A DNA stretch of 64,000 nucleotides from Phyllosticta citribraziliensis (GCF_038025025.1 NW_027117344.1:1922001-1986000), one strand, 5' to 3'; positions 21,064 through 44,241 are shown, counted from the stretch's first letter. Made by a program: numbers and translations. The notes: generated from the letters alone by a model not told the origin.

Positions 21064-21652
21064 ATGGCATCAGCCTTTGTGGCCCCATACACACTCCCTG
21101 GCGGTGGAGGCGACCCGCCCCGTCGCCCAAACAACAACAACAACAACAGAAACGGCCACAGGGTCGAAAAACCAGGGTAAGTCTGCAGTCTTGAGGTCCG
21201 TGGAGGAAGTCAACATCGCTGAACCTCCAACCAGAACAAAACAAACATGCAATCGCTGTGGCCAAGCCATGCACGGCCACTGGAGAGAATGCACAAGAAG
21301 ATGTAGAAGATGCAAGACCAACGAACACGTTGGATTGCCGTGCTCGGTCAAATACCCAGCACCAACTCCCAAAAATACCGGGGCCGTGAACGAACAAGTC
21401 GTCAAACTCAGCACGGACTTATATCAAGAAACTCGCGACCTCAGGAAACAGCTTGAAGAAAGCAGAAACAGGGAATCCAACATGGGCCAACAGGCTGAAA
21501 AAATGCAAAGAGATTTCTCCGTTTTGCAACAAGACCACATCTTTTTGCGGCAACAATACAACGAAATGGCCCAGCGCTATCAACAACAAATCCAGGAGCT
21601 TCAAAGACAACTCCGAGAACGAAATCAAAAAGACGGCCACCAAAAAGGCTAG
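21064..21652 (+). CDS. G0: orphan double zinc-knuckle (Gag/LINE-ORF1-like) plus coiled-coil protein
   Basis: Exon 21064-21176 (MASAFVAPY...NNNNNN), phase-2 intron 21177-21234, then CNRCGQAMHGHWREC-x3-CRRCKTNEHVGLPC and a Q/E/R heptad-rich tail. Confidence 0.75.
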
Positions 21653-21992
21653 TCCAAACGTCAAATTTCAATTGGCACTCAACACCAGACCCTGCCGGTC
21701 AAAAAACAGGCCCAACACTCAAGACCAGGCCTTTTCACAAAACACCAGGCCCTGCCTCTCAAACACCTGACCAAATCATTCAAAATCATGCCTAGTTAAT
21801 CAACACCAGGCCTCGTCAAAAATCAACCTGGCCCCAACACTTAAAACCAGGCCTCAACAAAAAAGAAACATAAAACACAAGACTCTGTCGCTCAAACCAG
21901 GCCTCACATGAAACATCATGCCTCATCAACAAACACAAGGTCTGAACAATCAAAACCAGGCCTCTCAAACAGAATTCAAAATCTCAAGCTTC

Positions 21993-22350
21993 GTTCGCGG
22001 AATCAAGAAGAGCTCGGAGGTCTTGCGTCGCGGGAGCAAGAAGAGCGCGGCTCGCAAACAATCTCGGAGGTCGCTTCGCGGGAGCAAGAAGAGCGCGGCT
22101 CGCAAACAATCTCGGAGGCCGCTTCGCGGGAGCAAGAAGAGCGCGGCTCGCAAACAATCTCGGAGGCCGCTTCGCGGGAGCAAGAAGAGCGCGGCTCGCA
22201 AACAATCTAGGAGGCCGCTTCACGGAAGCAAGAAGAGCTCGGCTCGCAAACAATCTCGGTGTTCTTGCTTCGCGGAAGCAGGAAGAGCTCGGCTCGCAAA
22301 CAATCTCGGAGCCTTGCTTCGCGGAAGCAAGAAGAGCTAGGATCGCAAAC
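21993..22350. repeat. 48-bp tandem minisatellite (~7 copies)
   Basis: Unit gcttcgcgggagcaagaagagcgcggctcgcaaacaatctcggaggcc; central copies near-identical, outer copies degraded. Confidence 0.95.
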
Positions 22351-23000
22351 AACATCCCAAACATCCAAACAACACCACAAAACATTCAAAATCTGTCGAA
22401 CGGCGGTGGCGTGTGTGGGGAGGGTGGGAGGACAAGAATTGCGAAACAGGACTACGCCAACAATTTGCGAACAACAATGCCCTCGGGCAAAATTTCAGTC
22501 CAAATTCAACAAGAAGCGAGCTCCAGCAAACGTGCTCTCAAACAAAACGAAAGGACCGCGGAGGAAACAGAGTCTTCAATCAACGCAAGCAATGGGCAAC
22601 AGTCAAAATATGCGGGGGGGAAACAATTGCCGAGAAGGATGTTGCGGAAGGGGTAAAATGGGGCTAAGGCCTCTGAATATGAAGACAATTCAATCCAATG
22701 AAAATCCTCGTGCTACACGAATCATCGAGAAGCCAGCTGAAAGTGACCACTGACCATCATTCGTAGCAGAGGCATTCAATCTTGAGTTTTACTGGGCATG
22801 CGGTCATGTTCTCATTGAGCATCAAGATTCGGGAGCAGAAGGCGGTAAGCCATACATTCAGTCTTGCGAGATGATTATGATTGCATGTTTTTGAAGCTGC
22901 GTGGATATCGTTGTCGCTATTGCGTCTCCCTCCCCACTCCCTCCTCCCAACTCGTTGCGCCATTGCTCAGCGCTGCTGTACCCTCTTGCCGATGTTTGCT

Positions 23001-24546
23001 TCACTCAATTCTTTCCTCCTGTCTTTGCCTTCTTTGCCGCGTTTGGTTGTTGAGCTCCATGTCGCCGACCCAGTAGGGATTGCTGACGCGATAGGCGTCG
23101 AGTTGCCATTGCGGAATGTCGTGCTGGAAAGGACAATTTGCGACGCGGCATTCGAGTGGCCGGCAGTTGTACCAAAAGCAGCACAAGGGTATTCTTTTGT
23201 AATAACAATGTTTCCATGGGTTTGCAATTGTCGGGTCATGTATTCTTCGGGCCCCGCGTAGACCTTGCCGGTCAAGGACTTCCAAGATCTCGGGGAGACC
23301 TTGCGCTATGATCGTGGTGCCACCTGCAATGTCATATTTCAGTGATCGAGGACGTCGGGTTGCAAATCTAAGCGAGTTCGGGGTGAAAACATACTCAAAA
23401 GCCTCAATTGCGGTTGCGGCGATGTCCCAGGAGACGTTGGTTGCTGTTGAGCGTCTAGAGATGTCAAACTTTAGTACAGATCCTTAGAGAGCGAACTCAT
23501 GAAACTTCGCACCTTGAGTCTCTTGCGGCAGCTCAGGGACGGGCAGCAAAGTTGGAGCCGGATCTACGTTGCATGTAAGCATATTGATCATCAGGAAGTG
23601 CGTCGGGACAGATCAATTCCGTACATTGCGGCTGCTGGCCCCCAGGATTCTGCGGCTGAATATCTGGAAAATTTGGTTTCAGTCTACAGCAATCACAACG
23701 CAAGATTTGGTGTGTATGGATATTCGGGAATTGTGGAATCCTCAAAACGAGCGGAGCCGGTCTGTAAAGGAGGCTGTCTGGAGATAACATACCTTGTTGC
23801 GCAGCATATTGAGGCGTGGGTACTAGCACCAGAAGTCAGCTCACAAAGTTTCTGGCGAAGACGATCATGGAAAGACGTACGTGGAGGTGCGTATTGCGCT
23901 GGTGCTTCTTGCGCTGGTGGTGCTTCTTGCACTGGTGGTGCTTCTTGCGCTGGTGGTGCGTCTTGCACTGGTGGTGCGTATTGCACTGGCGGTGCGTATT
24001 GCACTGGGGGTGCGTATTGCACTGGTGGTGCGTATTGCGCTGGTGGTGCGTATTGCGCTGGTGGTGCGTATTGCGCTGGTGGTGCGTATTGCGCTGGTGC
24101 GTATTGCGCTGGTGCGTATTGCGCTGGCGCATATTGCGCTGGTGGATGTTGCGGAGTTCGCGCTGGGGCTATGGATATGAGTGGACGAGGTTGGAGGTAC
24201 AGCCTTGAAAGAAAACTTACTCGTTTGCTGCCATGTTTGCGAATGAGCTGGAGATCCCGGCGTCAGCTCACGAAGATATCAACAGGGCAAGTGCTTTGGA
24301 AATGTCTCACCGATTTGCGGAGGCTGCCATTGTTGCGGTGGGGCCCTGGAGGTAGCGATGTCCTCGTGGATTTGCTGATGGCGGACTTGCGGCAAGTATT
24401 CTTGCGGGTGATAGCCTTGCGGTAGTTGGTAATTTTGCGTTGGTTGGTAGTCTTGCTTCCGGTCAGTGAGATTCGAGGCAGACTCCCAACGGTGCGCGCT
24501 CACAGGCGTGGTGGCCGTTTGGCCAGGAAGATTGATTTTGTGACAT
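23001..24546 (-). CDS. G1: micro-exon gene, Q/Y/P-rich low-complexity domain plus CCCH zinc finger
   Basis: Exons 24546-24504, 24451-24311, 24247-24221, 24168-23881, 23822-23793, 23663-23625, 23563-23513, 23454-23395, 23323-23001. All 8 introns are GT-AG and phase 1; the frame stays open to DPTIANPW...CFWYNCRPLECRVANCPFQH. Confidence 0.8.
23885..24145 (-). repeat. 15/18-bp coding tandem repeat encoding (QYAP[P][AV])n in G1 exon 4
   Basis: Repeated gcgtattgcgctggt(ggt) on the + strand. Confidence 0.95.
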
Positions 24547-25664
24547 CTGTTCAGAATGATATCAATAATTGGTTGACGGCGAGGGCCTTCGGTGAGCTTT
24601 ACCGTTGTGGGCTGTCGCAAAAGTTTGGTGTAGAGGAGAAGATGGTGGGCGTGCGAGATGGGAAGATGTTGCTTCGCAAGAGGCCGCCGCGGTGCCGACG
24701 ATTTGGCTGGCGGCGCCTTCCACACTCACTCCACCTCAGCGAGAACTGGCACCCACCCACTTCGGGGTTCGGCCGCCGTGTAGGAGAAAGCGAACCGGAA
24801 AATTGGCCCTGTGCCTTTGGCATTCTCTCCGTCATCGCAGACCAAATCCCTTTGCATCAACTTGTGCGCTCCTACTCCTCCGGCTCAGATGCGCTCTCTA
24901 CGTCGTCTCTTGAACAGCTCAAATGCTTCGTGTCCAACTTCGACCAAATGGTACGAATGCTTCTGATCTCTGGCAAAATCCTCCATGGCGCATGCGGAAG
25001 TTGTGTTCATCGGTCCGGATAAAAGGCTCCACGCTGACCATGTGCTTCACAGCTAAGGCACGATTCATACTCCCCTCCAGTCCCCAAACCCCTCGCCGTC
25101 ACTTGGGACTTCATACTCCTCATTCCACGAAAACCAAGTAGCACCATGGGATACAACTAGCAAAATTCGGCTTGGACAAAGAAGAATGCCGGAGAGACCT
25201 TGACATAGGCGGGATTTCTGAGCCAGAAGGGTTACTTTTGCACCTGTGGTATGTCTCCTTTCTTGCAGTGGCCGACAGATATTTTGAAATTGCTGTGAAG
25301 CATCGGATGGACACATCAGACTCCGACGTATGGAACGCCAGAGACTACTTCGGAACCAGGTTCTGATTCGACCGAAAACAATGAACGGGTGTTCTAGAAG
25401 GTCATCGAGAATTTTCCGATTTGTCGAACCACCTGGTGATTGCCAGTATGCCATTTGACGAGGCACAGAGGGTATCAAACTGCAACAGCCGCCAAGATAC
25501 AGTAGAAGGTCAAGATGAAATCTTTCATCATCAGCGAGTACTTGCTATATCCATGGAAGCTGACAGAGTGACAATCAGCTTCACAACATGCTCGAGACAA
25601 ACGTCTGCCACATCCGTGAAGTAAACCAGGCCGGCTTTGTTGACATTCGCAATCGAAGCGAAGA

Positions 25665-25800
25665 TGGACGGATGCTCCCTAAGTGTGGTTGTAGTAGTAA
25701 ATGAATGCTCCTTAAGCATGACTAAAGTAGCAGATGAATGCTCCCCAAGTGCACTCATATTGCCAGGAGGTCTGTCGCATTTCTTTCGACACCCACTGTG
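25665..25800 (-). mobile_element. MITE copy in reverse orientation (one end intact)
   Basis: About 25729-25800 is essentially the reverse complement of about 6224-6295; three GGAGCAT units follow. Confidence 0.85.
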
Positions 25801-26781
25801 GCGGGGTGGAGGAGGCGACCTGAGTGTGGGGAAGTTATGTCTGACGTCATATCATGCAGCCCCCGCCAGGAACACTTGGTCCGTCACCCACTTTCCGTAG
25901 TCAAACTCCTCTCGATCATTTCTTCATCCCCAGAGTCAGCAGTGGCGGTCTTGTTGATAAAGGCGTGTGTACTTACAGAATACCATAGAATGCGTATCTT
26001 ATCTTCCGCGAGATAGACGCTGTTCAATGTCCCAAATGCAGCAATCCACGCTGTTTGACCCACAGCCCCAAAGACCTGCATAGCCGAGGATCAAACATCG
26101 TGTACAAAAGCCAAGCATCTGCAATGATAGACACGGATATTGAAGTCGCCGTATCCGAGTCCCAATCTGCCTGGATCTCAGAACTTCTTCCGGTGAGGAT
26201 GCTTGAACTGCTGTCGACCCACATCGACTTGCCGAAAGTTGAACGGCCGTGTGTTGAATTCAAGATCCGGACCATGTTTCTGAGGCCCCTCATTGGACCA
26301 TCTTGGTTCCTAAACTGGTCCTCATCCGCTCCTTCTGCAAGCCGGCATCGACGTCGTATCTTTTGTGGAACGCCCCCAGGACTTGAAATCTGGAACTTGG
26401 TATCAAAGTTCTGGCGCACGCAAACAAAATGAAGACGTGAAATGATCAAGGAGCATTCAAGCGCTTGAGTGGTGGTGATTCAAGAGACAGAGACCGAGTG
26501 TTCTTTCTCGTCCAGAACTAGGACAGGAAGATTCAAACCGCCTGCCTAGTTGGGGATACTGCCTTTTGAGGTACCACGGCTTTTTGGACCAGACCTAGAT
26601 TCTTGGCCCGGATCTAGTTGATCAACAGTATGATGCACAATGCTTCCCAACCCCTCAGATGACGTGTTCCAGCTCGTGATTGATAATTGAACTCATGATT
26701 ATGGATAGCAGACTGCTGTGCCACTTAAACTGCGGAGCTAGCAACATCAGCAGTGTTCCCCGTCAACTCGCTCAGACAAAA

Positions 26782-28832
26782 ATGACTGACCACGACGCAA
26801 AAGAGGCGCTGAGAGACGACATTCGATGGGAAAACCCAATCCATCATGAGCGCCGTATCAGGGTCATTTGCATCGGCGCTGGAGCCTCTGGACTTCTCTT
26901 CGCCTACAAGCTCCAACGCTCTTTCCGCAACTTCTCCCTGACGGTCTACGACAAGAACCCAGACGTCTCTGGCACGTGGACTGAGAATCGCTATCCGGGC
27001 TGCGCGTGCGACATTCCCGCGCACAGTTACACTTACACCTTCTTCCCGAACCCCAATTACACGCACTCGTACTCCGGCTCGGAAGAGATTCGCAAATACT
27101 TTCAAAGATTTGCATCGACTCATGGGTTGGATCGCTACATCAAGACGGAGCATGAAGTCCAGGCGGCGACCTGGGACGATGCTCAGGGCAAGTGGGTCGT
27201 CAAGGTAAAGGACTCCAAGAGTGGGGAGGTGATTACGGACACTGGAGATTTTCTCATCAACGCCACTGGCTTCTTGAACAATTGGAAGTGGCCCGACGTA
27301 CCGGGTCTCGACAACTTCGAGGGAGATTTGGCCCACACAGCAGCCTGGCCTGAGGGTCTTGACCTCCACGGCAAACGCGTCGGACTCATTGGCAATGGGT
27401 GAGTTTCCCCTTATCTGGACTGCAACACCGTGGTCAGCGGACTCACAATCGAGAAAGATCCTCTGGCATCCAAGTCCTCCCAGCGATCCAGCCTGAGGTT
27501 CGCAGTCTGACTACCTTTATCCGCCACAACACCTGGATCACGAAGCCTTTTGGTAAGGATGGGCCGCGTGAATATACCGAAGACGAAATGGAGGAGTTCA
27601 AGGACCCGAATGTACTTCTTGGACATCGAAAGGAAGCCGAATCAGGCATGAACAGCATGTTCGGTAAGTCTCTCCTCCTGGTTTTGACGTCCGCTCGCAG
27701 TGAGTGTCCAATGGAAGTTCCCTGAGCGCAGTCGTCTTGGCGAATGACAGATTCAAGATTACACGCCTAGAATGTGACGTCCCTTGTCCCACTGTGGATT
27801 CAGGATGGGCTCCAAACCTAGCTCTTGTGGTCAACAACACTCGAACTCTGACTGACTAGTGTACCAGGAGTTTTCCTCAGAGACCACCCCGTCCAACAGG
27901 AAGCTCGCAAGATAATGGCCGAGGAGATGGAGGCCCGCCTGGACGGCGACAAAGCCCTCTCTACGCGCCTGATTCCCACCTGGAGCGTGGGCTGCCGGCG
28001 ATACACTCCAGGACCAGGTTATCTGGAAGCCCTGCGTGCTCCCAACGTCCACGTCGTGTACGGCGGCGTCACAGAAGTCCTGCCCAATGGGTGCAGGACA
28101 TCCACCGGCGAGACCGTCGAACTCGACACGCTCATCTGCGCCACGGGCTTTGACGTATCGCACCGCCCACGCTTCCCCCTGATCGGCCGCGGCGGTGTGA
28201 ACCTGCAAGACGCGTGGGCTGAGTCTCCGCGGAGCTACATGTCTCTTGGGGCCCCCGATATGCCGAACTACATCATGGTGATGGGGCCTAACTCACCGGC
28301 CGGCAACGGCCCCGTCCTGCTGGCCATCGAGGCGCAGGTCGCGTACGCCTTGCGCATGCTCGATCGCTTGCAGACGGAGAACATCCGCAGCTTTGTCCCC
28401 AAGGCCTCGGCGATTGAGGAATTCAACGAGTACGTAGACGCCTTCATGGAGAAGACTGTGTGGAAGGACGCGTGCAAGAGTTGGTATAAGAACGGCACGA
28501 CGGACGGACGCGTGACGGGGCTGTGGCCGGGCAGCGCGCTGCATTTCACCGAGGCGATACGCGAGCCGCGTTGGGACGATTGGGACGTGACGTACCAGGG
28601 CAATCGCTTCTCGTGGTTGGGTGACGGGTACAGCCAGACTGAGACGACGCCCGGAGCGGACCTGGCGTGGTATTTAAGCAACGAGGATCGGACTGAATGG
28701 GGGAGCAGGTGGAAGAGGAGGGAGGCGGAGATTTTGCCGACTGAGGAAACGGAGGAGGAAGACAAGTTTGTGCAAGGAAAGCTTGTTGATGACGGCGTCA
28801 GGAGAGATTCTGCTGCAGCAGTTGCTGCTTGA
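26782..28832 (+). CDS. Flavin-binding monooxygenase (Baeyer-Villiger type)
   Basis: IGAGASG, GTWxENRYPG, fingerprint FEGDLAHTAAWP, IGNGSSG, ICATGFD; introns near 27399 and at 27664-27867. Confidence 0.92.
27696..27796. mobile_element. Degenerate MITE remnant inside a monooxygenase intron
   Basis: Starts cgcagtgagtgtc and ends gtcccactgtg; the host intron is 204 nt against the usual ~55 nt. Confidence 0.45.
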
Positions 28833-29586
28833 GAGTAGGAGAGAAGCGCCAAATGTCTGTGCTGATGATTAAAAGAACTCATCCCACCTTCTGTGGCGTC
28901 AGTCAGCATAAAGCTCTGTCAGAAAGACCGCACTTGCCATATCCCAGAAGGATCATCATGACCACTCCATGCTTGTCTATCTTTTGTCTTTCCGCTTGCT
29001 AAGACACTTTCAATCCGCCGACTCGACTATTTATTCAATCAATAAGAAGTCAAAACGTTGCCACGCTCAATCCACGTCATCGTCCAGAGTACTGCGACCC
29101 TTTTCGATCTGGTGACCAGAGTCCGATCCGCCAGCACTGTCACTGACAGTGAATAAGGCCCTTGCTGGAAGGCTAGACGACACGCTCCCAATCGGCCCCC
29201 GGCTCCACTCTATCACATCTGCTTCTCCGTCCCTCGAATCCTGGATGCGATTAAGCCTGTCGAACTGATTGTTGTAATAGAGCAAAGAAAGCAAAATGGG
29301 CTGACCAAGAACAGCAGTAGAACAAACACCATTGCCAAAACCACCCGTGTCTTTCCCATAGTCATCACTTTCATTATCTCTCCCGATCCCGGTTGCAATC
29401 CCGTCCCCATTTGCCTTGGTCGCCGACGTCGTTGATGGGTATTCCGATGAAGAATCATGTTGATGTTTTGATGCGTCAAACCAGGGTATAGGTGAACGTG
29501 TTCCAGGGACAGCCGCAAAAGGAGCTTCGGTGGTGGTGGCAGTGGAGGTGATCTATTTCACAAAAGAAAATGCAAAGACGAGGGTC

Positions 29587-30970
29587 TCAGAGTTCTACAT
29601 CTTGGAAGGAACCCTGGCTGGGGCTAACATCACCATCTTTGTCCGGCTCGCCGGCCTCGAGGCGCTTGTCGGCTGCCGAATCAACCTCTTCTTCAGACTT
29701 CTTCGACTTGGAATCCGGGTCCTCTGATCCTTTCGCAGCTTCCTCCGCGCGCGGTGTGTCATCCGGATCGACTTGCTCGGTTTCCTTGGCTTCGTCTTTT
29801 GCGTCGTCTGCAGACGTTGTGGTTTCGGCGGCACTTTCGTCTTTCGGTGGTGGGGCTGGAGGTTCGCCTTCAGATGCCTCGGCAGCATCTTTCTCTGCCA
29901 CCGTGACCATGTCCGTAGCAGACGTGTTGCCATTTGGTGGTTCTTTCCGCACCTGTTCTGGGGTTGGAGGTGTGATGCCCAGCTGTGGGCTTGGCATCGG
30001 TGGACTCTTCTGATTTTGCTGTTGCATACTCTGGCTTCTTCCATGTGTTGCCTGGTTCTGCTGCTGCTGCTGCTGCTGTTGCTGACCCGCCGGCGGGCCA
30101 ATCTGCCTCAGACGCGGATCGGCATTGATGTAGTACTGCCTGACACCAACTATTCTGCCCTCGCGCTCACAAGCCTTGACCCAGTCAGGAACAACGACGG
30201 GAATGTTCATCTCCACGGCTTTTTCCCACAGAGGGCCGCGACCTTCTGTGCACACGAAATGTGTAGTGTCGATGCGAACTTGGTCAATCAGCTTGGCGCC
30301 TATGCCTGTGACGGTATTGACGAGGCTCTCCTTGAGCTGCGCGGGCATGAGGCCGGGTGTCACGGTGATGCCACCCAGCTCGGTCATCTTGTGCGTCCGG
30401 ACGACCAGCCTCTCGCTGCTGTAGGTCCCCGCGCTTGTCCTCAACACTAGGTGGAACTGGTATTCTGTGTCAAGCGCCAGGCCGGAAATTTTGGTGCAAT
30501 GTTGCTCGAGGGGTCTGGGAATGCTGCCGGCCTTGCTGCCATTGCGGTACAGAGAGAGGCTGCGCAGCTCGGCCGTCGCCAGCTCGATGGGGTCCCATTC
30601 AAGGACGACAGAGGTTTGGGTGGTGTTGCGACAGCGAAGGACGGGGGCCGAGGGGGAGCGCGTGCCAAAGGTTTGGTAGATTTTGGTCTGCAATTGTTGA
30701 AATGCCTGCTGGGCCGCGCTTTCGGTCTGGTGGTTGCGCGAGACTGTAATGTCGACGATGCTGCCAGAGGAGATGTCGGGGGGCAGGAGAATGGACGGGA
30801 ATTCAATCTGTCTTGGTGGTCAAAGGTGTGGATCTTCACAATTGCGGCGACGTAGCAAGGATGGAGCTCGGCGAGGGATTTGGAAAGCGAGAGCATACCA
30901 GACGCTTGTCTTCGGTGAGGAGGACGGCAACGCCGGCGTCGACTTTGCCGACGGTCAGGGAGACCAGCAT
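29587..30970 (-). CDS. CHS5: Chitin biosynthesis protein Chs5 (exomer subunit; FN3 + BRCT)
   Basis: MLVSLTVGKVDAGVAVLLTEDKRL/IEFPSILLP N-terminus, FN3 and BRCT (THFVCTEG...VVVPDW), acidic tail. Confidence 0.95.
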
Positions 30971-31382
30971 ATCGGCAGCGAGGAGGTCAAGGCGGTCTTT
31001 GTGGTGTTGTTGTGGAGATGTTGCGGAGTCGTCGCGGAAGACGGAGACGGTGACGAAGCAGGGTCGGGCTGGCTGGCCGATTCGCCGGCCTCCCTCCTTC
31101 GACCCACGACCTCACGTGCAAGTCGTATTCACTGCTGCTATCCCAAACGCGCATCGTTTCCGCCTGTATCGACGTGAAGTAAAAAGGACTCCAGCTTACT
31201 TCCCGCCTCATTGGGCGCACAATTGTATCATACACATGGCCATTCCAAGCTCCAGTTGACGCCGTTACAACAAATCGTCCCCCTCTACCGTACGTCATCC
31301 ACGTAGTTCGATGCAATGCTCTCATCTCGGAGAGGTATGCACGCGCAAACTAATTCTGTACATTCACGCCCTCCGCCCCCGC

Positions 31383-32186: not shown

Positions 32187-32739
32187 GGTTGCGGACGAAG
32201 AGTTCAAGACGAGTCGGTTGCTCAGGGCGTCGGGTACGGTAGGAAGAGGGCGCGGTGGGCAAAGTCGTCGACGGTGGTGGTGATGGTCGAGGTGGAGGTG
32301 ATGTTGCGGCAGCTCGAAGCTCGGGCGCCCAGAGGCCAGACCTGACGGGAGCCCCAGCCAGGTGCCCGAGCCCAGAGATGCGGCTGCCCATGCAACTAAC
32401 AACAACCACCACCACCCTTGCTGCCTCTCTTTCTTTTCTCCAACCCTTTTCTTCTCCCATTCTCCTCTCCCCACGCTATTCTTCGCGCGCGCTCTCCTTC
32501 GCCCCCGTTTCCGCCCGCCACACCCCGACCTCCGCAGGCGATTCGGCCTGCGTCTCGTGAGCGTCGTCGCGCATCATCATCATCCGCACCGTTTCACCTT
32601 GTCCCATCCTCGAGGCTTGCGCCCCTCGCTCCTTTTTGCGCCTCCTGCGGGCGCACCCGCTCTGGTATCTTCTTGTATGCGGCAGCATGTCTGTACTCTT
32701 CAGGTAGCATCTCGCCTTACCTGAGTAGCACCACAAGTC

Positions 32740-34670
32740 ATGGTTGAGCTTTCCCCCGGCGGCAGCGTCGCAGTGAGTATCCCGCCACTTGCGTACCACC
32801 AGGACTTGCTGACTCTGTATTCGTAGCTTGGAGTCTTTGTCGGGCTGCTTTCGACCAGCATACAGAGCCTCGGCCTGACGTTGCAACGCAAATCGCATCT
32901 TCTCGAGGAAGAGAAACATGAGACCGACGACCGGCGCCCGCCGTACCGACGACGGAGGTGGCAGGTAGATACACCAACCACGAGAAAGCCGGGCAGCACT
33001 AATACTCGCAGGTGGGCATGCTCATGTTCATCGTGGCCAACCTCGTCGGGAGCACCATACAAATCACAACCCTTCCTCTCCCTGTGCTCTCAACGCTGCA
33101 AGCGGTACGGACCTCTCCCAACAGACTTGCGGCCATGTCATACTGACGTTAGCAGTCTGGCCTGGTCTTCAACTCAATATGCGCAACTCTCATCCTCAGC
33201 GAACCCTTTACTCGCTTCTCTCTTGTTGGCACGATCCTCGTCGCTGCTGGAGCCGTCTTGATCGGCATATTTGGCGCTCTGACGGAACCTTCGCACACGC
33301 TGACCCAACTTTTGGCCCTCCTTGCTCGCACACAATTCCTGATCTGGCTCGTCGCGACATTTTTAATTTGCGCAGGGCTCTTTGCAGCACAATGGTTCCT
33401 CAAAAGACTAGCCCCCAGGCCTACTCCACTAGTTCGACTCCTTCGCGGCATGTCCTTTGGGGCTATCAGTGGCATCCTGTCTGCCCATTCGCTGCTGCTG
33501 GCCAAATCCGCCGTCGAACTGCTGGTACGAACAATCGTTGACAGGCAAAACCAGTTCAACCGGTGGCAGTCTTATATCATTCTGATCGGGCTGGTGTTTC
33601 TTGCCCTCACTCAGCTCTATTACCTCCACCGCGGTCTTAAGCTCTGTTCTACCAGCGTGCTTTATCCGTTTGTCTTCTGCATTTACAACATCATCGCCAT
33701 ACTCGACGGGCTCATCTACTTTCGCCAAGTCTCTCGACTCCCGGTCAAAGACTCGATTCTCATTGCCATTGGCACCGTCATCCTTCTTGCCGGTGTGGCC
33801 GCGCTTAGCTGGCGCCTCGAAGACAAGGACCCGATTGCCAGTGCCCACCAGAGGAAGCTCTCTCGACACTCATTCACTGGCGTACCACCTCCCCGGAACG
33901 CCCTCAGCCCTGGTCTTGGTTTTATCAATGCTGGAGGATCTGATTCCGAAGAGGATCCTTTCTATGGCGCAACGCCCTACGATGAAGAAGCGCCTCTTGG
34001 GATCGCAAGCAGCAGCAGGAAACGAAAGGGCAGTCATGCAGCTGGAGCCGCCTCGGATGAGAGGACACCTCTCCTGATCCGCACCAACACAGCCCCTTCA
34101 GCGGCCGCGAGAAACGCCGCATCCAGTCAAAGCCCCACCCAAAAGGAGAGCCCGCACAGGCCAGCCCCCTTGGGCCGCATGCGCCGGATGACCATTGCAG
34201 AAGAAGCGGGCGAGGTATGGGATGAGTTGAATGACCGGGAAAGGAGGGGGAGCGACGTGCATTCACCAGTCGATGCGCGTGGTCGGGGAAGAGGCAGGGG
34301 TCATGCAAGGATACGGTCCGGGACGCTTCCTCTATCAAGTCAGAAGGGCATTCAAAGAAAGCGAAGATGGTGGGAGAGCATCGTGTACGGAGGAACCAGC
34401 AATAGACCTGCTGCATCACCTACACCACAGCCACCACTGGAGCGATCAGCTACGGATAGGGACAACGACGAGCCCGACGCCACTCTCCTCAGCCCGAGCC
34501 CAGAGAGATCCAGCTTCTGGCAAATTCGTAATCCGCGTACACAAATTTCTCGACAAGCAAGTGGGGGACCTTTTAGGCTGAATTGGTGGAGGGGCAGGGG
34601 CAATGCCGATGAAGAAAGAGAAAGAAACGAGCAAAGAGGATCTGGCAGAGGGGATCGAGACAACCTTTGA
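32740..34670 (+). CDS. NIPA/DUF803-family (Mg2+ transporter-like) membrane protein
   Basis: SLGLTLQRKSH, RRRRWQ, GLVFNSICATLILSEPFT, STSVLYPFVFCIYN; long disordered C-tail. Confidence 0.85.
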
Positions 34671-36711
34671 TACGCAAGCTTGCTTGCGCTTAATTTTCTT
34701 TGCATCAGCTCGGGAGCCTTGTGGAGACTTGGATGGAACCCAGATGGATTCTGGGTGCAACTATCCAGCAGTTTCACAGATTGGAAACATTATACCCCAT
34801 TCTTTGGTTACACTTCTGGCGCTTTGCAGAGCGTTTCTCCTTACGCTTCTGGATTCTCAAATCTGGAGTCAATCTTTTGGTCCGTTTCGTTTACCCCTTT
34901 CCATGATCATTTAAATGCTGTTTGGAGGATACGTCAGCCTCGACCAGCGCTTTCCCCGTGTGGAGTTTTGCATCTCGAAGCGGAAATGGCATAAAGAGCG
35001 GGAATCTAGGAGTTTCTGCCGTCTGTTCCTTGGGAGCATTCATTCATCTGCACACTACCGCAGTCCGCAATCTTGCTCAGTAAACTCGAGCCTTCGCTTT
35101 TGCGACTCTCAGAACCTCTGTATCTTTACTTTCTGGCACTCGGAGCTTTCCTTCTCTGTCGTTCGAAGAACGACGTTTTGCATTCTCTTTTGGATTGACG
35201 TTGGATTACAGTGTTCCCGTGTCACGACACAACGTTGAGTGAATGTTGTCAAGCCCCCCGGGTATAGGGATCATGCTTGCTCGAACAGAGCTAATGCAAA
35301 CAACACACGTCTTGGCACGACTCCGCCCTGCCACTCGACCGTTTCAAACAGTTTACCGCTTAGGGTGAAGCGGGAATGATTTTGAGAGGGCAAAGAATCC
35401 CGCTAACGGCACAAGTCGGTGTGCGACGGACGGCAACTGCGAGTATGCGCCATGCTCGGTGATCAACCCTATTCCGTGGTGGATGCACCCAATGCGTGAT
35501 AAAACTGACGTGGATGCAGATGCCTGTGCTTTAGTTGATGAAGTTTATACAGGCCGTTCGCTCTGGCACAACCGAGACGGAAGGCCTCATTTCCTCAACC
35601 ACAGATTGCCATGTCCAGAAGCTGAACGACTTCCGTTTTTGACTTGAAAGTCTCGCAAGAGATTCCCACGCCTTGGATCCCGCATCTTCGGCGCATTCGT
35701 GGCCGCGAACACTGGAGTTGTACCACAATACTGCCACCTCGAGCGTTCTCATCAAGTCTATCCCAGTCAGATGATGTAAGTTTATGTCCATGTTCCTGGT
35801 CGAAATGCAGACCGGCCTTGCCGTTGTTGACAAAACCGCAGGAAAGGCACAGTACAAGCAACCCAGTGCGATTGTTGAACGCGGGATTGGTTCAACAAAG
35901 ACGGATACCGCATGCACGGACGTTGCTTTTGGGCATCTGGACGGGTGGGACAAAAGAAATGTATCTCGGATCCTCGGGCCTTGTCGCTCTTGTAAACAGA
36001 GCCAAGTTGTTCAACAGGGACCAAGGATGGCTCAGCAACGCAAAAAGATTCGATGACGTACTGATACCCATCCCCGCCTCGCACCCGAGGAACTAGATGC
36101 CTGCCTGGATTGAAAGCACCTACACGTCTGGACCTCATTGACCCATGTTGTTCGCATCGGACGAGCCGTCGGCTTCCGCTGAAAGACAGACCCTATCCAG
36201 CAGACACGGCTACGGTCAGCGAGGCTTTGCGACAAGCTCCACCTGCGGCAGCAACGTCCAAGCCAACCGCATTGGCAGCACCAAGGCTCGAAAAGACGAG
36301 ATAAAGTATGAAAATCACGGCAATTAGGCACTGATCTACCGAGCTTGGCTTGCTTACCTTACCTCTCGATGTAGATTTGCTCTACTTGGCCTTGCGTCGG
36401 ACAGACTGATATTGCTCCATGGGGAAGGTATGACCCTGAACATGGTTTGCCAAGCGCGGTTGGCTGCGTGGTGGACATCTTAACCGCGCCACCTACCTTG
36501 TTTTATGGTTAAAATATTCCAGGGAAGCGCACAGGAAGAAGAGGTAGTGGCTGAGTTTGTGCGTCTGAGCTCGATGGTGACGGTAGTATTTGGAAGGAGC
36601 GTTCGTCGCTTTGGCCATGGCGAGTGCGGTGCGCTGGACATTGGATGCTCCCAAGGCCAGTCAAAACTAATCTCTTAATCCACATTCCATTGGCGCACGG
36701 GACCAACCATT

Positions 36712-39358
36712 ATGGCACTCTATTCGGCTCTTGCGCAAAGTGGAGTTCGGTCCAGAAGCACTGCGCGGAGGGGCGCCGCGGCTTTGCGGCTCATGATTGG
36801 ACTGAGCACTTTGCTCATGTTCGTTGGCTTTTTTCTCGGGTCGCCGCTACTTGGTAATTTCCTTCCCGAGAATTTGCGCTCAGACAAGAGATGTCAGCTA
36901 ATTGGAGAACCTCCAGGAGCCACAAGACAGCGTCAACAACCAATCGACCATGGCAACCAGCGCCTCGTCAAGCGTCAAAATGTTCCTTCACCCGAGGGAG
37001 ATATTTGCCAGACTCAGGAGTGCAAGGACTACTCGTCGTACATCAAGCGGTCCCTTGGCGTGAATTACACCCAGATCGATCCTTGCACGGACTTTTGGAA
37101 ATTTGCTGTGGGCAACTGGCAAAGCTTCAACGACTATCGACCAGACCAGTCTTGTGAGTATCTACAAAGGTGATAACAGCACGCAGGGAAGCTGACTGAG
37201 CCACCACAGCCGTCAACTCTTTCAGCGTGTTGGATGACAAAAATCGCGACCTGCTGCGAAAGGTCTTGGAGAGTCCATACAACGAAGCCACGATGATGAG
37301 CGACCAAGATCGCCCAATCGACCGCGACAACTTCAACAAGATGAAGACAGCGTACGACGCCTGTCTGAATGAGGACCTGCTCAAAGAAGTTGGCGTCAAG
37401 CCTGTGAAAGACATCCTCGACGCCGTCCCAAAGCCGGATTCCGGGAAATACGAAACTACTGGCGGGCTGACCGACATTCTCATCACGCTCCACCGATTGG
37501 GCGTCTACCCGCTCGTAGCGACGGATACGGGCTCAGACCGCAAGACACCTGACGTTGTGACCATCTACATAAACCACGGCGGCAAGGGATTGCCTTCGAA
37601 GGAGTACTACAACAAGACCGACGTGCAGGCCAACTACACTCGGACGATTGCCGAAATGTTTGACATCTTTCTCGGGGACAGCGGTACGCACGGGGAAACG
37701 TCAAAGCAGGTGTTTGAGTTGGAGCGCCGCATCGCACTCGCACAGTTGGACCCAGAACAGGAGAGAAATGTCGACTTGACGTACAACCCCTACAAGCTGG
37801 AAGACGTAGACAAGCTGGTCCCAGATATTTCCGTCACGCAACTGATCGACGCATTCACCCCGCCGGGATTCGACGCCGAAAACGTAGTGCTCCAGCCTGT
37901 AGAGTACTTCCGCCAGCTATCCCAACTCATAAAGAGCGTTCCGACCGAAGTTCTCTACGCATACTTCCAATGGACCATCATCAACGGATGGGCCGATTCG
38001 GTCTACCGCGACCTCCGAGCACCGTTGCGGCGATTCAGGAACCAGCTTGCCGGTAGACCTGACGATGCCATTCAAGACCGCTGGCGTACCTGTCAAGAAG
38101 AGGTAGATGAGAACATGCCGTGGATCCTGTCCGGCGCCTACGTCCAAGCCCGCGCCTTTGGTCAGGACTCCAAGACCTTGGGTGAGCAGATCATCGACGA
38201 TATTCGGCTCATATACGAAGAGAGGTTTCCAAATTACGACTGGATGGCGAAAGAGGTCCAAGAGAGGTCCAAGAACAAGGGTAAGCTAAGCAACTTTGGT
38301 ACCCTTGACACATTGGGAGTCGAGACAAATGAAGCCTCCTGGCAGTACAGGTGTGCTTAGAGAGCATTCATTCACTGCTACAGTTGCGCATCCATCCACT
38401 ACTGCCCCACGCTCAGGAATTAGTCCTGCCTTGCTGCAGCCAGACGCAGGGGGTCTCATTTTTTCGACACCCACCGTGGTGGTTGAGATGTTCAACAGGC
38501 GCTAACGGAAACACAGTTACCTTGATTGGCAAAAAGATCGGCTATCCAGACAAATCGCCCAACGTGCTCGACCCCGGCTCTGTGCAGGAATACTACGCCA
38601 ACCTCACCGTCAGCAGTACCAAGTACTTTGAGAACAAGCTGAACATCACGTTTTTCAGCGCTAACAAGAGCTGGGATGATTTGCTGCGGCCGACAGACAA
38701 AGACCGCTGGAGCGCAAGCGCAAACACCATCAACGCCTTTTATTTTCCCAACTACAACCAAATCGTCTTCCCGGCCGGTATAATGCAGACGCCCTTCTTC
38801 AACCGCGAGCTTCCCGAGTATGTTTCGTACGGAGGCTTCGGCATGCTGGCCGGGCACGAAATTACGCATGGGTTCGATGACCAAGGCTCCAAGTTCGACG
38901 AGCGCGGCAACTTTGCTACATGGTGGGACAAAGGGACGCGCGACAATTTCACGGAGCGCACCAAATGCTTCGTGCAACAATACGCCAAGTTCAGCATCCC
39001 AGGCCTCGATGACAAGCCGCTGCCCATCAATGGCGAGCTGACGCAGGGCGAGAACATTGCCGACGCTGGCGGCGTCTCGTCGAGCTACGAGGCCTGGCGA
39101 CGCAGAAACGAACGAAAGCGCAACCAGATGCTGCCGGATTTGCCGGCTGACGCAAACTTCACGCCCGAGAAGCTATTCTTCGTCAGCTTTGCCAATATTT
39201 GGGCGCAGAAGGCGAGGCAGCGGGCTCTGGTTCAGCAAGTGTTGAGCGACGTCCATACGCCCAATGAGCAGCGCGTCTTGGGGGTATTGGAAAATTCGAA
39301 GCCGTTCAAGGAGGCGTTCGGTTGCAAGGATACAAAGCCGGCTTGCGAGTTGTGGTAG
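36712..39358 (+). CDS. Peptidase M13 (neprilysin/endothelin-converting enzyme-like)
   Basis: N-terminal TM, DPCTDFW, INAFY, HEITH zinc motif, GENIAD, C-terminal CELW; introns near 37154 and at 38281-38516. Confidence 0.93.
38309..38478. mobile_element. Diverged full-length MITE copy inside the M13 peptidase intron
   Basis: Left cacattgggagtcgagacaaatg...cctcctggca...gagcattcattc; right ctcattttttcgacacccaccgtg; collinear with the 6224-6409 copy. Confidence 0.75.
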
Positions 39359-40071
39359 GGCGGTCGTTGGTGCTCTGATGGTCCTGTGCTCCGCTTACAC
39401 GGCCTGGCGTGTTGTCCCTATTATTGCTTAGCATCCGTGTATTCGATCACCTGTCAATACATGACTTTCTTCCAAGCGCGTCGTGAGCGACTTGTTAAGG
39501 GGCCCCGGAATTCGATTGTTTGCCTGCAGATTATCCACGGAAGATCTCTGTTTCTTTGCGGGTCGGGGAGCAAAGGCACTGGAAATGACGACATGGGGTG
39601 TCAGTGGCGCGACAAACGGAAGGCTTCGGTGGTGATTGCTCCCAAATACCTGACAAGTTCTCTAGTACAGCGGAGCCAGAGCACGGCTGGCGCGAATCTG
39701 TTGAAGAAAGCGGCTCTGTGGGCTGTTGCCCTCGCGGTCGTTTCGAAGAGGGCTTGAGAGACTGCCTGGGTGTCGGCATAGAGGTGCGGGTGATGGGTCG
39801 GCGCAGAGGCGCGCAAGCAAAATACGCACCCAGACTGATGCCGGCCTAGCCAGGCAGCAAAAATAGGCGACGGCAAAACGATATTGCTGGTGAGGCAGTT
39901 GGGAGAGAAAGGAAGGCGCGTCGGGGCCCGCGCACTCGCCGGTCTAGATATTCCCTCCTCCCACGAAGACCGTTTCTTTCTCTCCACCTATTATCCGACA
40001 ACGCGCACACGGTAAAGCTCACGCGAATCAATCTTGCTGCCGTGCCTGTACTGACTCCATTGCGTGAAAAG

Positions 40072-41225
40072 ATGTCCGACAATCGGTTCTCCTCCTCTCG
40101 GCCACCCGGCCACTACTGTGAGTGCCTGCGTTGGAGGCTTGTCTTGAACCCCAATGTACTAACTGGAACTCCAGACGACAACCGCGCAACGCAAGATCGC
40201 CGGTCTCCACGCCACAGATCGCAAAGTGAGTCTGACTCTTGAATGCTCCCACTTACGGTTCCGTTGACTGACAGCGCTGTCTTCAGGATCTCGGTCGCCC
40301 GCATCTCGCGAATCGCAATACACTTCGCAACGGCGAGGTAAAAGAAGCGCGAAGTGTTTCCCTCCCGAATTTCCGCTGACATCAAGCTCCAGAACGTTCG
40401 CCTCATTCTCGACGACAAAGGAGTAAGTCATAGATCAAGCCTTTGTCTCTGAATACGGGAACTGACCTGAATGCTCCAGCGCCTTCGCAACACGCGCACT
40501 CTTCGCGACGCACACACTCTTCGCAACGCGCGCGCTCTCCGCAACGCGCACACTCTTCGCAACTCGCACACTCTTCGCAACGTAAGTTTCCCATTTGAGT
40601 CATTCCGTCCAAGATAAGGTCATTGACATGTGCTGTAGAGTCTACAGCGGCGCAATTGACTGCAGCCAAAGCTGAAGTCAAGGACTTGAAAAGGGAGATA
40701 GAATTCCTGAAACTCCAACATCAAATGGAGGTGCAACAGCTGAAGCATGAAAAGGAAATGCTACAGCTGCAACATTATAAGGAAGCGCGAGAGCCGAAGC
40801 AAAAGCTCGAGCAATCCACGCGGCAGCGCACGCAGCCCCCGGAAAGACTCCTTGATTCCACCGCGCAACACCCGGTGCCCAAACGGGAAAGCCCGGAGCC
40901 CTCGCCGCAAAACTACCCGCTACCTCCGCAGCAAAAGTCTGCCTCCGAAAGACCGCGGGAAGCGCAAACAGCGGAAGAGAAGAAAGACCCGCGCATCGCA
41001 AACCCATGGGTGTACGATGAGCGGCACCATTCAATTATCAGATGTTGTTTCCACTACAACGTGTATGGCAACTGTCAGGTGCCGGGGAACTGTCATCTCC
41101 TGCACGCAATTCCTGAAAAAGAGTTGGAGCGATGTGAAAATCAGCAATGGGTGACGGAATACCGGGGCAAATATCGCATCCAGCGGGAATGGGGCCTGGC
41201 CAAAGGCAACCAGCGAAGGCAATGA
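40072..41225 (+). CDS. G2: micro-exon gene, RS/SP-rich domain plus coiled coil plus CCCH zinc finger
   Basis: Exons 40072-40117, 40175-40225, 40287-40337, 40393-40422, 40480-40581, 40639-41225; 5 of 5 introns phase 1. Encodes RRSPRHRSQRSRSPASRESQ and canonical C-x8-C-x5-C-x3-H (CFHYNVYGNCQVPGNCHLLH). Confidence 0.85.
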
Positions 41226-42219
41226 ATAGGGAGGGAGGGTCTTTAGGTCGATTGCCAGGGGAAGTTTGCAAGGAAACGATCGCAAAAGATCGCAATCAAC
41301 ACGTCGCAAACATTGCGCAATAATCTACGCCTTCTCTTGTCAATTGACACATATGTTCTGTGAAACTGCTTCTCCGCCGTAATTTTGAAGGTTATAAAAC
41401 ATAAAATAAGCCTCGAATGCTCCAAATGTACGCCCTCACGGGTATCCAAAGTTTCCCCAATGCTTCAAATCCGAGAGACTTGAATGTGGTCTGATAGTCA
41501 ACGTGTAGTCTCCTTGTACCTACAAGGCTCGCACACTGGAAGTCGACAGGTATGGCTACACTTGAGGGGAGACTTTCTGCAGTGAGTGGTCAAGGAGAGG
41601 ATGGAATTGTTCTGTGTGCAGCACAGCAGTCCCAAAGTCTACTGTGTGTGTTCGCGACAAGACGCGTAGAAAGAGGGAGAATCTCACACAGCCAAAAGGG
41701 CGCAGGTTTGCCTGTTTAAACAAAGGCTGGTGGGAACGTTTCAACGATAGGCTGACTTGGAGAAAGGGAACAAGACGAGGAACGAATGGAAGCTTGAGGC
41801 TCCACGCGGAAGTACACCAGGGACGTTCAAATGCGTTGTTTGTGAGAAGGCAGACAAGCAGCCTTCATCGGCGCCCCAGATCTTTCTACAAGTCGATGCC
41901 TTGTTGCGGCAATCCCTTGCAATGACTGTCGCTGAAACTATCTTGAATCTTTGGCTGATCACAAAGCAGACACAGCAAACAGGACCTTCACAAACGATGG
42001 AACTTCTTCGCCGTTGAATGCTGACCTTTTGCTGTCGCTGTAGCTTGCTTTTTCCCCGTTGCTCCCTGTCTTTCTATCTCTGCCTACTCCATTGTTCAAC
42101 TCTTGCCGTCTCCAACCGTATCACAAAGCTCCTCACTCTTCCCCGGATTCGACTGCTCCTGGTGCTCTTTTCTCCTTCATTGGAACCTTCCGCCCGTTCC
42201 TTCCCAAAACAATACCTCC

Positions 42220-44241
42220 TCAACGAGACTGGTCCGAACGATTCAGAACATCCAGTGCTTTTCCTACCACGTTCTCGAACTCGGACAATTGTCGATTTTT
42301 CGCGTCCCAAATCTCTCTCAAGTGCTCTTCATGCTCAACTCTTTCCTGCGCCAACACACATTCCGCTTCGAACAGAAGGTGCTCAGCATCGTCCCGCTGT
42401 TCGTTGGACCTCAGGAGGTCGGCTTCAGCTCGGTCGGCACGGTCTTGCTGTATCCTCAGCTGGGCACAGACATAGAGATAATCCTCCCTCTTGATGTGGT
42501 CTCCACCTGCTCCATTGTCGACGTCTTGAGCTTGGATGCCGTTGTCCTGGTTCTCGCCCGCATTACCCGCCCTTTGTTCTTGCGAACTAGGCCCCTGGAA
42601 CTCGGCCGCTCGGTCGCTAGGGAAGTATTCTGAAAGTTCCACTGTGCGCCGACCATACTCTGGCGAAGAGCTAGAACCCGCCCATCCGCGGCGGCCTGTG
42701 TGAATGTCGTAAAATTTGGCGGGAATCTTGGAGCAAGGGCGATGGAAATGCTCGCGTTTGTCGCACCACTGACAGGTATCTGAGCACTGTGTCCAGTGTC
42801 CGTGGATTTGTGATCCGCAACGGAGGCATATGCCTTTCCAGGTAAATCTGTCGAGAAAACAGTCAGTCCAGAAGACATTGAGATATTTCCGTCCTGGGAG
42901 TTACTCACGTTCCATCAAGGTCCGATTGGGAGATAACGCGGCCACCTTAAAGTTCTCAAGTGTCAGTAGAACCAATCGTCGAAACACATCCGTCCGGGAA
43001 CCTCAGGCGAAACACGTGCCTGGAGGATTTGTTTGCGGCTCCAAGGCCTGCTCCTGTTGTAGATCCTCTTGCTGCTGCCTCGGATCCACCACCACCAGCT
43101 GGCCGTCTTGAGATGTCGGTCTGGGAACGCTTCCCAAGAGCGTCTGAAACGACTGCGCGTTCGTCTGCTCATCCGTCTGCGCACCATTCTCTTGCGGCTC
43201 GTCGGGATTGGGTCAAGAAGCCGAAGCCGGGGCTACAAGGAAACATCAGCAGACTGGCCACGACGATGAGGATTAATATCAGCTTTGTACCTTGTCCTTT
43301 CTGGCCATGGGAATGCTGTGCCTGAAGGTCTACGCAATTTAGTGTCATTACGCAGTAATATCCGAGAAACCCTTTGCCCGTATCGGCTCTTTCGTATCGC
43401 AAAGGCCTCGCAAAAACGGGTATCGGAGGGTGACATACATTGAGGTGCGTAGTGTGGTGTTGTTGCTGGAGCACCATATCAGCTGTTGTATTTCCAAGGG
43501 AGGTATGATTGGACGACTTACAATGGGGCGGAAATTGGCATGACGCTGTCTCTGAAGCTGAATTGTCAGCCAACGAAGACTTGTTCGAGGGACTACGTAC
43601 GCTGCGGTGGTGCATGCTGAGGCGCATGATGAGGCGCATGCTGAGGTGCATACTGAGGTGCATACTGAGGCGCATACGGAGGCGCATACGGAGGCGCATA
43701 CTGAGGCGCATGCTCTGAAATACCAGATGTCAACCGAAAGGTTCTCCATAGGGACAAGATCGCGGAAGGGCATACGTGGTTGTGCAAACGGCTGCGTCAA
43801 CTGAGGAGTAAACTCTGGAGCATCGTGAGTCGAGACAACCCCAAAGACACATATTTGAGGGATAACCAACGCTGCTGCCACTGGGCCGGTGGTGGTGCTA
43901 GATTCCGGTGTCAGCATGTGGAGATTCCCAGGCAAATTCCACTGCCCTTTCGTTCCTTGCGGTTGCTGCTGCAGAGGCGGCGGCAGCGGCTGCGGGGGCG
44001 GCGCTGGAGACATAGGCGTCAACTCTCAAAGGCAGCGGGAGGATATTGAGACGCTCTGGGATTCCTTACCTTGCTGAGGGTAGCCTTGAGGCTGGTAGCC
44101 TTGAGGCTGGTAGCCTTGAGGCTGGTAGCCTTGCAGCTGCTGGTTGTCTTTTGTTGTTCAGTGAGATTCGAAGCAGAAATAGAGCAGTGTGCACTCACGG
44201 CCGTGTTGGCCATTGGGCCAGGAAGACTGATTCGGCCACAT
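42220..44241 (-). pseudogene. G3: micro-exon gene, Q/Y/P low-complexity domain plus double zinc knuckle plus coiled coil; two lesions (pseudogene or rescued by exon skipping)
   Basis: Exons 44241-44199, 44147-44070, 44003-43956, 43897-43871, 43814-43776, 43714-43601, 43557(or 43545)-43522, 43465-43439, 43329-43291, 43232-43020, 42945-42909, 42847-42220. Encodes CLRCGSQIHGHWTQC-x3-CQWCDKREHFHRPC. Lesions: GA donor at 43955 and in-frame TGA at 43215-43213. Confidence 0.7.

Follow-up and report, generated by a model that had tools for sequence, protein, structure and literature searches.

A candidate genus-restricted cluster of modular, putative RNA-binding genes in Phyllosticta citribraziliensis

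Gene content of the two islands

We analysed a 64,000-nt window of the Phyllosticta citribraziliensis genome (GCF_038025025.1 NW_027117344.1:1922001-1986000; positions are counted from its first letter), which carries two islands of small genes with zinc-finger-like patterns. In island A, G0 (+ strand, double CCHC knuckle) is convergent with G1 (- strand, CCCH finger), and in island B, G2 (+, CCCH finger) is convergent with G3 (-, double CCHC knuckle). A sequence-only reading of this DNA had reported such a tail-to-tail pair in each island, and we found all four genes at the positions, of the types and on the strands it gave. A six-frame regular-expression scan of the 64 kb recovered two double-knuckle genes and two family fingers, all of them G0-G3, and, at 8975 and 9599, two further strings with CCCH spacing that are unrelated. 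When the islands were compared by dot-plot and blastn, as the same reading had proposed, four short matches were obtained (the longest of 166 nt), with no long DNA similarity. Most simply, one pair would long ago have been duplicated in inverted orientation to give the two convergent pairs.

G0 (coding region 21064..21652, + strand) was delineated by sequence reading, spliced translation and the knuckle regular expression. It encodes 176 aa in two exons (21064-21176 and 21235-21652), separated by a single phase-2 intron of 58 nt. The protein has an N-rich start, two CCHC-spaced knuckles (21248 and 21302) and a charged helical tail.

G1 (23001..24546, -; our own model, with the ATG at 24546 and the stop at 23001) encodes 333 aa in nine exons of 43/141/27/288/30/39/51/60/323 nt; its introns, 52-129 nt long, are canonical (GT..AG). 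Q+P+Y+A account for 70% of the first 200 aa, a part in which 18-nt repeats encode PAQYAP-type units, and a C-terminal CCCH finger at ~23183 lies between DPxIANPW and WV motifs. A 56-nt intron (24547..24602, -) in the 5' untranslated region (5'UTR) begins GTAAAG and ends CAG, its acceptor abutting the ATG. A contig piece of sequencing run X1 was found to end exactly at the predicted donor, 24603, and 282 more letters of that record align elsewhere.

G2 (40072..41225, +) was placed by mapping P0001, a 288-aa P. citribraziliensis protein. Like P0004, a protein model of the same species that covers G3, it maps to the window with 0 mismatches. UniRef names P0001 a C3H1-type domain-containing protein; the C3H1 label, here and for P0006 below, is UniRef's own and was not reproduced by us. 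G2 has six exons (46/51/51/30/102/584 nt plus stop) and encodes 288 aa, of which the N-terminal 93 are 47% R+S; a helical segment and then the CCCH finger (41043) follow.

G3 (42220..44241, -; ATG 44241, stop 42220) was modelled from the P0004 junctions read in the Q/P/Y frame, and comprises ten exons of 43/78/228/114/30/27/39/213/37/628 nt. A G1-like low-complexity array with QGYQP repeats leads to a 213-nt exon with a GC donor, and a 37-nt exon then shifts the phase from 1 to 2 ahead of the terminal exon, which carries the double knuckle (42828 and 42774) followed by an 88-residue helix. This helix (terminal-exon residues 120-207) was predicted with a predicted local distance difference test (pLDDT) score of 92-99. 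The terminal exon starts at 42847, where a contig piece of sequencing run X2 also ends. A 55-nt 5'UTR intron (44244..44298, -) is predicted by homology with G1. The GC..AG intron (43019-42946, -) has a perfect TACTGAC branch site and is used by P0004 too.

The sequence-only reading had missed a fifth gene, G4 (44511..46099, +), which lies just outside its coordinates, head-to-head with G3; we located it with the cassette profile described below and by sequence reading. Island B accordingly holds three family genes (G2, G3 and G4), not two. In G4 the 5'UTR intron occupies 44511-44570, the ATG is at 44571, and exon 1, of 52 nt, ends in phase 1 and encodes a W-P-x-G-H core. Q/P/Y-rich mini-exons follow, several of them of 30 nt, and the terminal exon (~45792-46099) is predicted to be helical. 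An open GT..AG exon chain exists from the ATG to a stop, and no zinc finger was found in the G4 sequence. The searches made gave no public protein models of G0, G1 or G4.

Introns are in phase 1 throughout G1 and G2, and likewise in G3 except for the last, and the intron directly 5' of the knuckle exon is in phase 2 in both G0 and G3. Q+P+Y+A make up 56-70% of the N-terminal regions of G1, G3 and G4, and R+S 47% of that of G2.

A 5' cassette common to four genes

The N-terminal exons of G1 had been said to match those of G3, and this was confirmed. In both genes exon 1 is 43 nt and encodes a QSSWPNG peptide, intron 1 (52 and 51 nt) is almost the same and has the common text quoted in the sequence-only reading, and a YAP-repeat exon ending C|GTACGT is followed by exons of 30 and 39 nt. 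By blastn the two genes have matches of 75 nt (78.7% identity) and 166 nt (71%), and in local alignment they score 50, where shuffles give 9.4 +/- 1.4. The 39-nt exon of G3 had been placed behind a long intron; the exon is there, and P0004 has an extra 27-nt exon inside that supposed intron. At the protein level, G1-G3 homology continues beyond the 39-nt exon into the one that follows; the score is 66, where shuffles give 38 +/- 6.5 and 2/500 of them score as high. We also considered an alignment of GGRVISQSDLDG (G3) with GARRIHDPTIAN (G1) just before the fingers; it falls outside the significant local alignment and was not relied on.

A wider comparison defined a 5' cassette, made up of a 5'UTR intron of 55-60 nt, an exon 1 of 43-52 nt and intron 1, in G1, G2, G3 and G4. 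Its exon 1 encodes M-x...[W/R]-P-x-G-[HQ]. Each of the four 5'UTR introns opens with GTAA and ends at the ATG or 2 nt before it. Local DNA scores were 50 for G1-G3, 36 for G1-G2 and 25 for G2-G3 (z = 29.6, 20.4 and 12.8), with shuffles at ~9.3 +/- 1.3. The G2 copy (39997..40201, +) spans the end of the 5'UTR exon, a 60-nt 5'UTR intron (40012-40071), the 46-nt exon 1 and intron 1; its nhmmer E value of 6.8e-46 is that of a copy used in building the profile. The profile of the three cassettes retrieved a fourth copy at 44523-44696 (+; E 6.1e-6), which belongs to G4. We took the combination of a 5'UTR intron with a homologous exon 1 and intron 1 as the mark of one family, and it was found in G1-G4 and not in G0. 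The 5' region of G0 scored at shuffle level against G1-G3 (scores 10-12; z -0.2 to 1.5), which places it outside the set with the family cassette.

With the same scoring, coding DNA gave 17 for the G1-G2 finger and 15 for the G0-G3 knuckle, against 25-50 for the cassette. The mostly non-coding cassette is thus better conserved at the DNA level than the finger-coding exons.

Mosaicism was assessed in a three-way cassette alignment (G1, G2, G3) with 87 informative sites. A run of eight sites at which G2 equals G3 was reached in 0/20,000 permutations, and a run of nine at which G1 equals G2 had P 0.025. Label changes along the cassette numbered 44, with 55.2 +/- 4.2 expected (P 0.008). This patchiness makes short-tract gene conversion among the three paralogs plausible, and regulatory constraint or local replacement in G1 could contribute to the pattern. 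Gene conversion had been proposed earlier as an exchange of terminal exons between the pairs; in that form the proposal did not hold up, and it is as short patchy tracts within the cassette that conversion is plausible here.

A consensus fold of the four cassettes had nine pairs with essentially no covariation, and no conserved RNA fold was evident. A separate observation is that GGCC-N4-GGCC in exon 1 is invariant in the four cassettes (24427-24618, 39997-40201, 44123-44314 and 44510-44700). This string encodes the P-x-G-[HQ] core, and a 4-bp hairpin, without covariation, is possible there. The repeats of G2 and G3 showed no similarity to each other.

The reported mosaic is thus borne out: G1 goes with G2 by finger, and with G3 by its low-complexity exons (the YAP, 30-nt and 39-nt exons).

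CCCH fingers of G1 and G2 and their relatives

The G1 and G2 fingers had also been reported to match, and we found 28/68 aa identical (40-41%; 41% over the 68 aa), with a pairwise E value of 1e-8. The last exon of G2 was searched against 1.84 billion representative proteins at E <= 0.001. Three matches were returned: P0001 itself, P0002 and one unrelated repeat protein. P0002 is a 217-aa P. citriasiana protein, ~53-54% identical to G2 over 78 aa and 40% identical to G1. Among longer proteins, all four matches to the finger profile were from Phyllosticta (P. citribraziliensis, P. citriasiana and two from P. capitalensis). All relatives found belong to this genus. Metagenome scans with the finger and knuckle profiles returned no relatives, and the ESM Atlas gave no match >= 0.9 for P0006 or for the G3 terminal exon.

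The finger has the form C-x8/9-C-x4/5-C-x3-H. Its Cys/His columns are invariant in 5/5 sequences, and 18 columns are invariant overall. The pattern C-x7-9-C-x4-6-C-x3-H, by which we assigned membership, is present in G1 (23183) and G2 (41043). Comparison of the CCCH and CCHC module profiles by hhalign gave a probability of 0.2%, that is, no detectable relation.

The two P. capitalensis proteins, P0005 and P0006, share the architecture of G1, and their fingers are 59-60% identical to that of G1 over 73 aa; to the G2 finger they are 35-37% identical. They are 386 and 410 aa long and start MSHPQGNW..., and residues 1-170 of P0006 are 60% Q+P+Y+A. In PMC9073689, P. citrichinaensis is given as the closest relative of P. 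citribraziliensis, and P. capitalensis is apparently the phylogenetically most distant of the set of citrus species. Because the P. capitalensis proteins have this architecture and a finger 59-60% identical to that of G1, in a species that this source apparently describes as distant, the architecture of G1 and the split between G1 and G2 appear to be old, on the assumption of roughly clock-like change. Two observations count against such an age. The cassette is far more alike among the paralogs than are the coding fingers and knuckles. The exon-1 peptide of G1 is also closer to G3 (10/14 positions by our own count) than to its P. capitalensis counterpart (6/14).

Double knuckles and the in-frame TGA of G3

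The second knuckles of G0 (21302) and G3 (42774) have the spacing C-x2-C-x4-H-x4-C, and the first knuckles (21248 and 42828) have x5 before the last Cys. Over the knuckles the two proteins are identical at 20/41 residues (49%; pairwise E 1e-11). The N-terminus of G0 compared with the pre-finger region of G3 gave a score equalled by 166/500 shuffles, and the helices of G0, G2, G3 and G4 scored in the shuffle range in all six pairings (34-405/500 reached the score). The knuckle profile found no relative among PDB sequences. Searches with the G3 knuckle exon gave no match in longer proteins and, in proteins of near length, returned P0004, its own model.

Followed from the ATG at 44241 along the P0004 junctions, the Q/P/Y frame runs for 478 codons, interrupted by a single TGA. 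This in-frame TGA (43213..43215, -) was identified by frame reading; it is codon 193/478, the next base is C, and in the alignment G1 has a Leu codon at this place. Of the three frames, only the Q/P/Y frame is open in the 228-nt exon 3. P0004 reads G3 in another frame, giving SMRLSMRL and WWWW runs, skips exon 3 and has an extra intron through the second knuckle. The other frame and the knuckle intron, by which the TGA is avoided, look like an annotation artefact.

For the G3 sequence in this assembly we see three candidate explanations: it is a nonsense allele yielding a 192-aa low-complexity protein, the TGA is read through, or the gene is rescued by the acceptor at 43190. A model with that acceptor avoids the TGA, although the acceptor is weaker than the one used by P0004 (43232), and its product could be a minor isoform. 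An in-frame 51-nt intron in exon 3, tried beside the intron 44069-44004, was rejected, there being no AG acceptor in phase.

Judged from its exon structure and alignments, G3 is best read as a chimera, in which a G1-like array would be joined through the 37-nt exon to a G0-type terminal exon. It could also be the other way round, G0 being a gene of the G3 type that was truncated.

Transcript evidence and neighbouring features

The contigs of runs X1 and X2 are transcript-like, and skip at least 15 GT..AG or CT..AC stretches in neighbouring genes. Pieces of them are present on G1, G2 and G3, with ends at the predicted splice sites 24603 (G1) and 42847 (G3). Stretches not covered by X1 lie inside predicted G1 introns. 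One X1 contig extends 1.1 kb 5' of the donor of the G1 5'UTR intron (24603-25697), and no convincing open reading frame (ORF) was seen in that interval. This contig would be either a very long G1 leader or another, overlapping transcript.

The window has a G+C content of ~53% and short GT..AG introns with CTRAY-type branch sites, the pattern of a filamentous ascomycete. Neighbouring genes, named by eye from ORF translations, encode a flavin monooxygenase, a V-ATPase subunit E-like protein, a NIPA-type transporter and an M13 peptidase. A tRNA-Asn (GTT) gene at 19227-19321 (+) lies 1.7 kb 5' of G0. Within 20000-47500, no RNA family of Rfam was detected.

A 48-nt tandem repeat of seven copies (22013..22352, no strand; 91% match) was called by Tandem Repeats Finder, and sits in the 1.35-kb gap that separates the stop codons of G0 and G1. 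Tandem repeats also occur 3' of G4 (46160-46740), where the frames give repeated GVSAQGA... and AYLRKA... peptides. Pfam returned no match for the longest frame of the 22013-22352 repeat or for the 46160-46740 repeat. A repeat of ~140 nt resembling a miniature inverted-repeat transposable element (MITE) is found at 25665-25800, 6224-6410 and 38309-38482, its copies 87% and 74% identical, and one copy lies within a 236-nt intron of the M13 peptidase gene. Many differing flanks were found at 25751-25802 in all four sequencing runs, and the element is therefore multi-copy in these genomes.

Interpretation of the cluster

We consider it reasonably probable that the cluster G0-G4 is restricted to the genus and that its five related genes are assemblies of exchangeable parts, with a shared front end, different back ends and a putative role in RNA binding. 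The front end would consist of the 5' cassette followed by small low-complexity exons on phase-1 introns, rich in R/S in the case of G2 and in Q/P/Y in that of G1, G3 and G4. To this would be attached a CCCH finger in G1 and G2, a double knuckle with a long helix in G3, and a helix only in G4. G0 would represent the knuckle-plus-helix exon without the cassette, and the terminal exon of G3 would have kept the G0-type phase-2 intron. The cassette would be kept similar among the paralogs by short-tract gene conversion, by regulatory constraint or by both, and through it the members of the family may be co-regulated. Our best guess at function is that the products are putative RNA-binding proteins that would self-associate through disordered (prion-like or RS-like) regions and helices.

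A number of results weigh against this interpretation. The functional part is wholly inferred. Pfam zf-CCCH (PF00642 or relatives) did not match the G1/G2 exons at E <= 1, nor P0001, P0002, P0005 or P0006 at E <= 10, and zf-CCHC (PF00098) did not match the G0/G3 exons at E <= 1. When the finger profile was run against PDB sequences at E <= 10, nine matches were obtained, none of them significant, and five were CCCH fingers. These five were CPSF30/CPSF4 (twice), tristetraprolin, a 'cytoplasmic zinc-finger protein' and KIAA1064, and the E values of CPSF30 (0.045), tristetraprolin (0.11) and CPSF4 (0.15) are above the usual thresholds. The AlphaFold model of the finger, with an overall pLDDT of 53, is unreliable, as is the knuckle region of the G3 prediction (<50). 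The gene models of G1 and G4 are our own predictions, a single heuristic path with an uncertain choice of exons gave the interior of G4, and the splice joints inside G2 and G3 are predicted ones.

The evidence for shared modules has its own limits. The likeness of the G2 18-nt repeat exon to the YAP repeat is only suggestive, 13/300 codon shuffles giving an equal score, and the site pattern of the cassette can also be produced by local replacement in one copy. The likeness of G0 and G3 is confined to 41 residues, and their DNA around the phase-2 intron scored 7, against 7.5 +/- 1.2 for shuffles. Since the helices and the region of the phase-2 intron are both at shuffle level, either direction of change may apply, G3 arising by fusion or G0 by truncation. 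The in-frame TGA also means that one of the two convergent pairs may make no finger protein.

Alternative explanations

The cluster might instead be mostly evolutionary debris, i.e. pseudogenes and orphan genes that are young and under little constraint, with low-complexity frames that composition keeps open and Cys/His patterns without conserved function. The lack of Pfam family matches, the nonsense codon of G3 and a range of one genus fit such an explanation, as do the public G3 model, which is in another frame and cuts the knuckle, and the failure to find public protein models of G0 or G1. Set against these, species that PMC9073689 apparently places far apart within the group have G1-type fingers that are 59-60% identical, and 18 finger columns are invariant in five sequences. 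Exon phases are kept in all members, exon 3 of G3 is open in 1/3 frames, and X1 and X2 contig pieces, some ending where splice sites are predicted, map to G1, G2 and G3. As an account of most of the cluster, debris is unlikely.

A more elaborate version of the modular interpretation can be drawn, and we regard it as very unlikely. In it the cassette would be an actively homogenised docking unit that swaps CCCH, CCHC or helix heads on a disordered scaffold, and the products would form a fast-evolving RNA-targeting system of a defence- or drive-like kind, with convergent neighbours acting together.

A speculation of the sequence-only reading, carried further, would make of each convergent CCHC/CCCH pair a module of two components held together by selection, be it a toxin with its antidote or an obligate heteromer, with N-termini exchanged between the islands by inversion or conversion. 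The same convergent combination in both islands, the grouping of G1 with G2 by finger and with G3 by low-complexity exons, and the conversion-like mosaicism of the 5' cassette would all suit it. The cassette, however, is common to G1, G2, G3 and G4, and is therefore a family character, not one exchanged between pairs; with copies in G2 and in the fingerless G4, a swap of N-termini is not needed to explain the match. Inversion does not help either, on logic alone. Inverting a central block would leave the combinations of finger type and N-terminus unchanged, and if the block between the pairs were inverted, each finger type would still have its present partner. The islands have no long DNA similarity, and the proteins retrieved from P. 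capitalensis and P. citriasiana are of the CCCH type only, while searches with the G3 knuckles gave its own model only. With three family genes in island B and a TGA in G3 that precedes its knuckles, we found no support for a two-component module, and it is most unlikely.

Adjacent double knuckles with the spacing C-x2-C-x4-H-x4/5-C recall nucleocapsid proteins. An origin of the G0/G3 knuckles from a retroelement Gag or nucleocapsid, with the cluster domesticated or acting in defence against mobile elements, is nevertheless extremely unlikely: the nucleocapsid-like spacing and the MITE-like repeat near G1 are offset by the lack of a Pfam zf-CCHC, Gag or other retroelement match, by the lack of a PDB sequence relative of the knuckles, by the intron-rich structure of the genes, and by ORF and repeat scans in which no long terminal repeats or pol turned up nearby.

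Relation to known systems and significance

The C-x8-C-x5-C-x3-H spacing of G2 and P0002 is that of CPSF30/Yth1 and tristetraprolin, and among CCCH patterns G1 and the P. capitalensis proteins have x9/x4/x3. Unlike in those proteins, the finger here is single, is not recognised by Pfam and was found in Phyllosticta only. It also differs from CCCH proteins in the flanking motifs, D-P-x-[IL]-x-N-[PL]-[WY] before and N-x-x-W-V after, and in its Q/P/Y or R/S front.

CCHC zinc-knuckle proteins include retroviral nucleocapsid, CNBP/Gis2, Air1/2 and Lin28. The second knuckle of G0 and G3 (C-x2-C-x4-H-x4-C) resembles them, whereas the x5 of the first knuckle, the 3-residue linker and the 88-residue helix that follows in G3 do not.

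Prion-like or low-complexity RNA-binding proteins are represented by Sup35-type Q/Y repeats and by the RS domains of splicing factors. The Q+P+Y+A front of G1, the QGYQP repeats of G3 and the R+S front of G2 are like these in composition, and the many small exons on phase-1 introns and the 5' cassette conserved among paralogs set the Phyllosticta genes apart.

The wtf and Spok genes are fungal toxin-antidote or meiotic-drive genes. A likeness to genes of this kind, taken over from the toxin/antidote analogy of the sequence-only reading, would lie in clustering, fast evolution and lineage restriction. In contrast to wtf and Spok, no overlapping dual transcripts were seen in the present genes, there is no enzyme domain, and no membrane segments were noticed. 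The literature searches made gave no paper that treats a CCCH/CCHC pair or a gene family of this kind.

The family is modular, genus-specific and partly decaying, and it opens no new kind of system. Public gene models are corrected by this analysis, in that G3 is annotated in a wrong-looking frame, and G0, G1 and G4 are absent among the proteins searched. If the modular interpretation is true, the locus would be a compact natural case of fungal gene assembly by exon shuffling, in which one cassette is combined with three C-terminal modules, intron phases mark the joints, and a non-coding cassette has stayed closer between paralogs than have the coding fingers. It would then lend itself to studies of gene conversion between paralogs that lie apart, and of how orphan putative RNA-binding proteins arise and decay.

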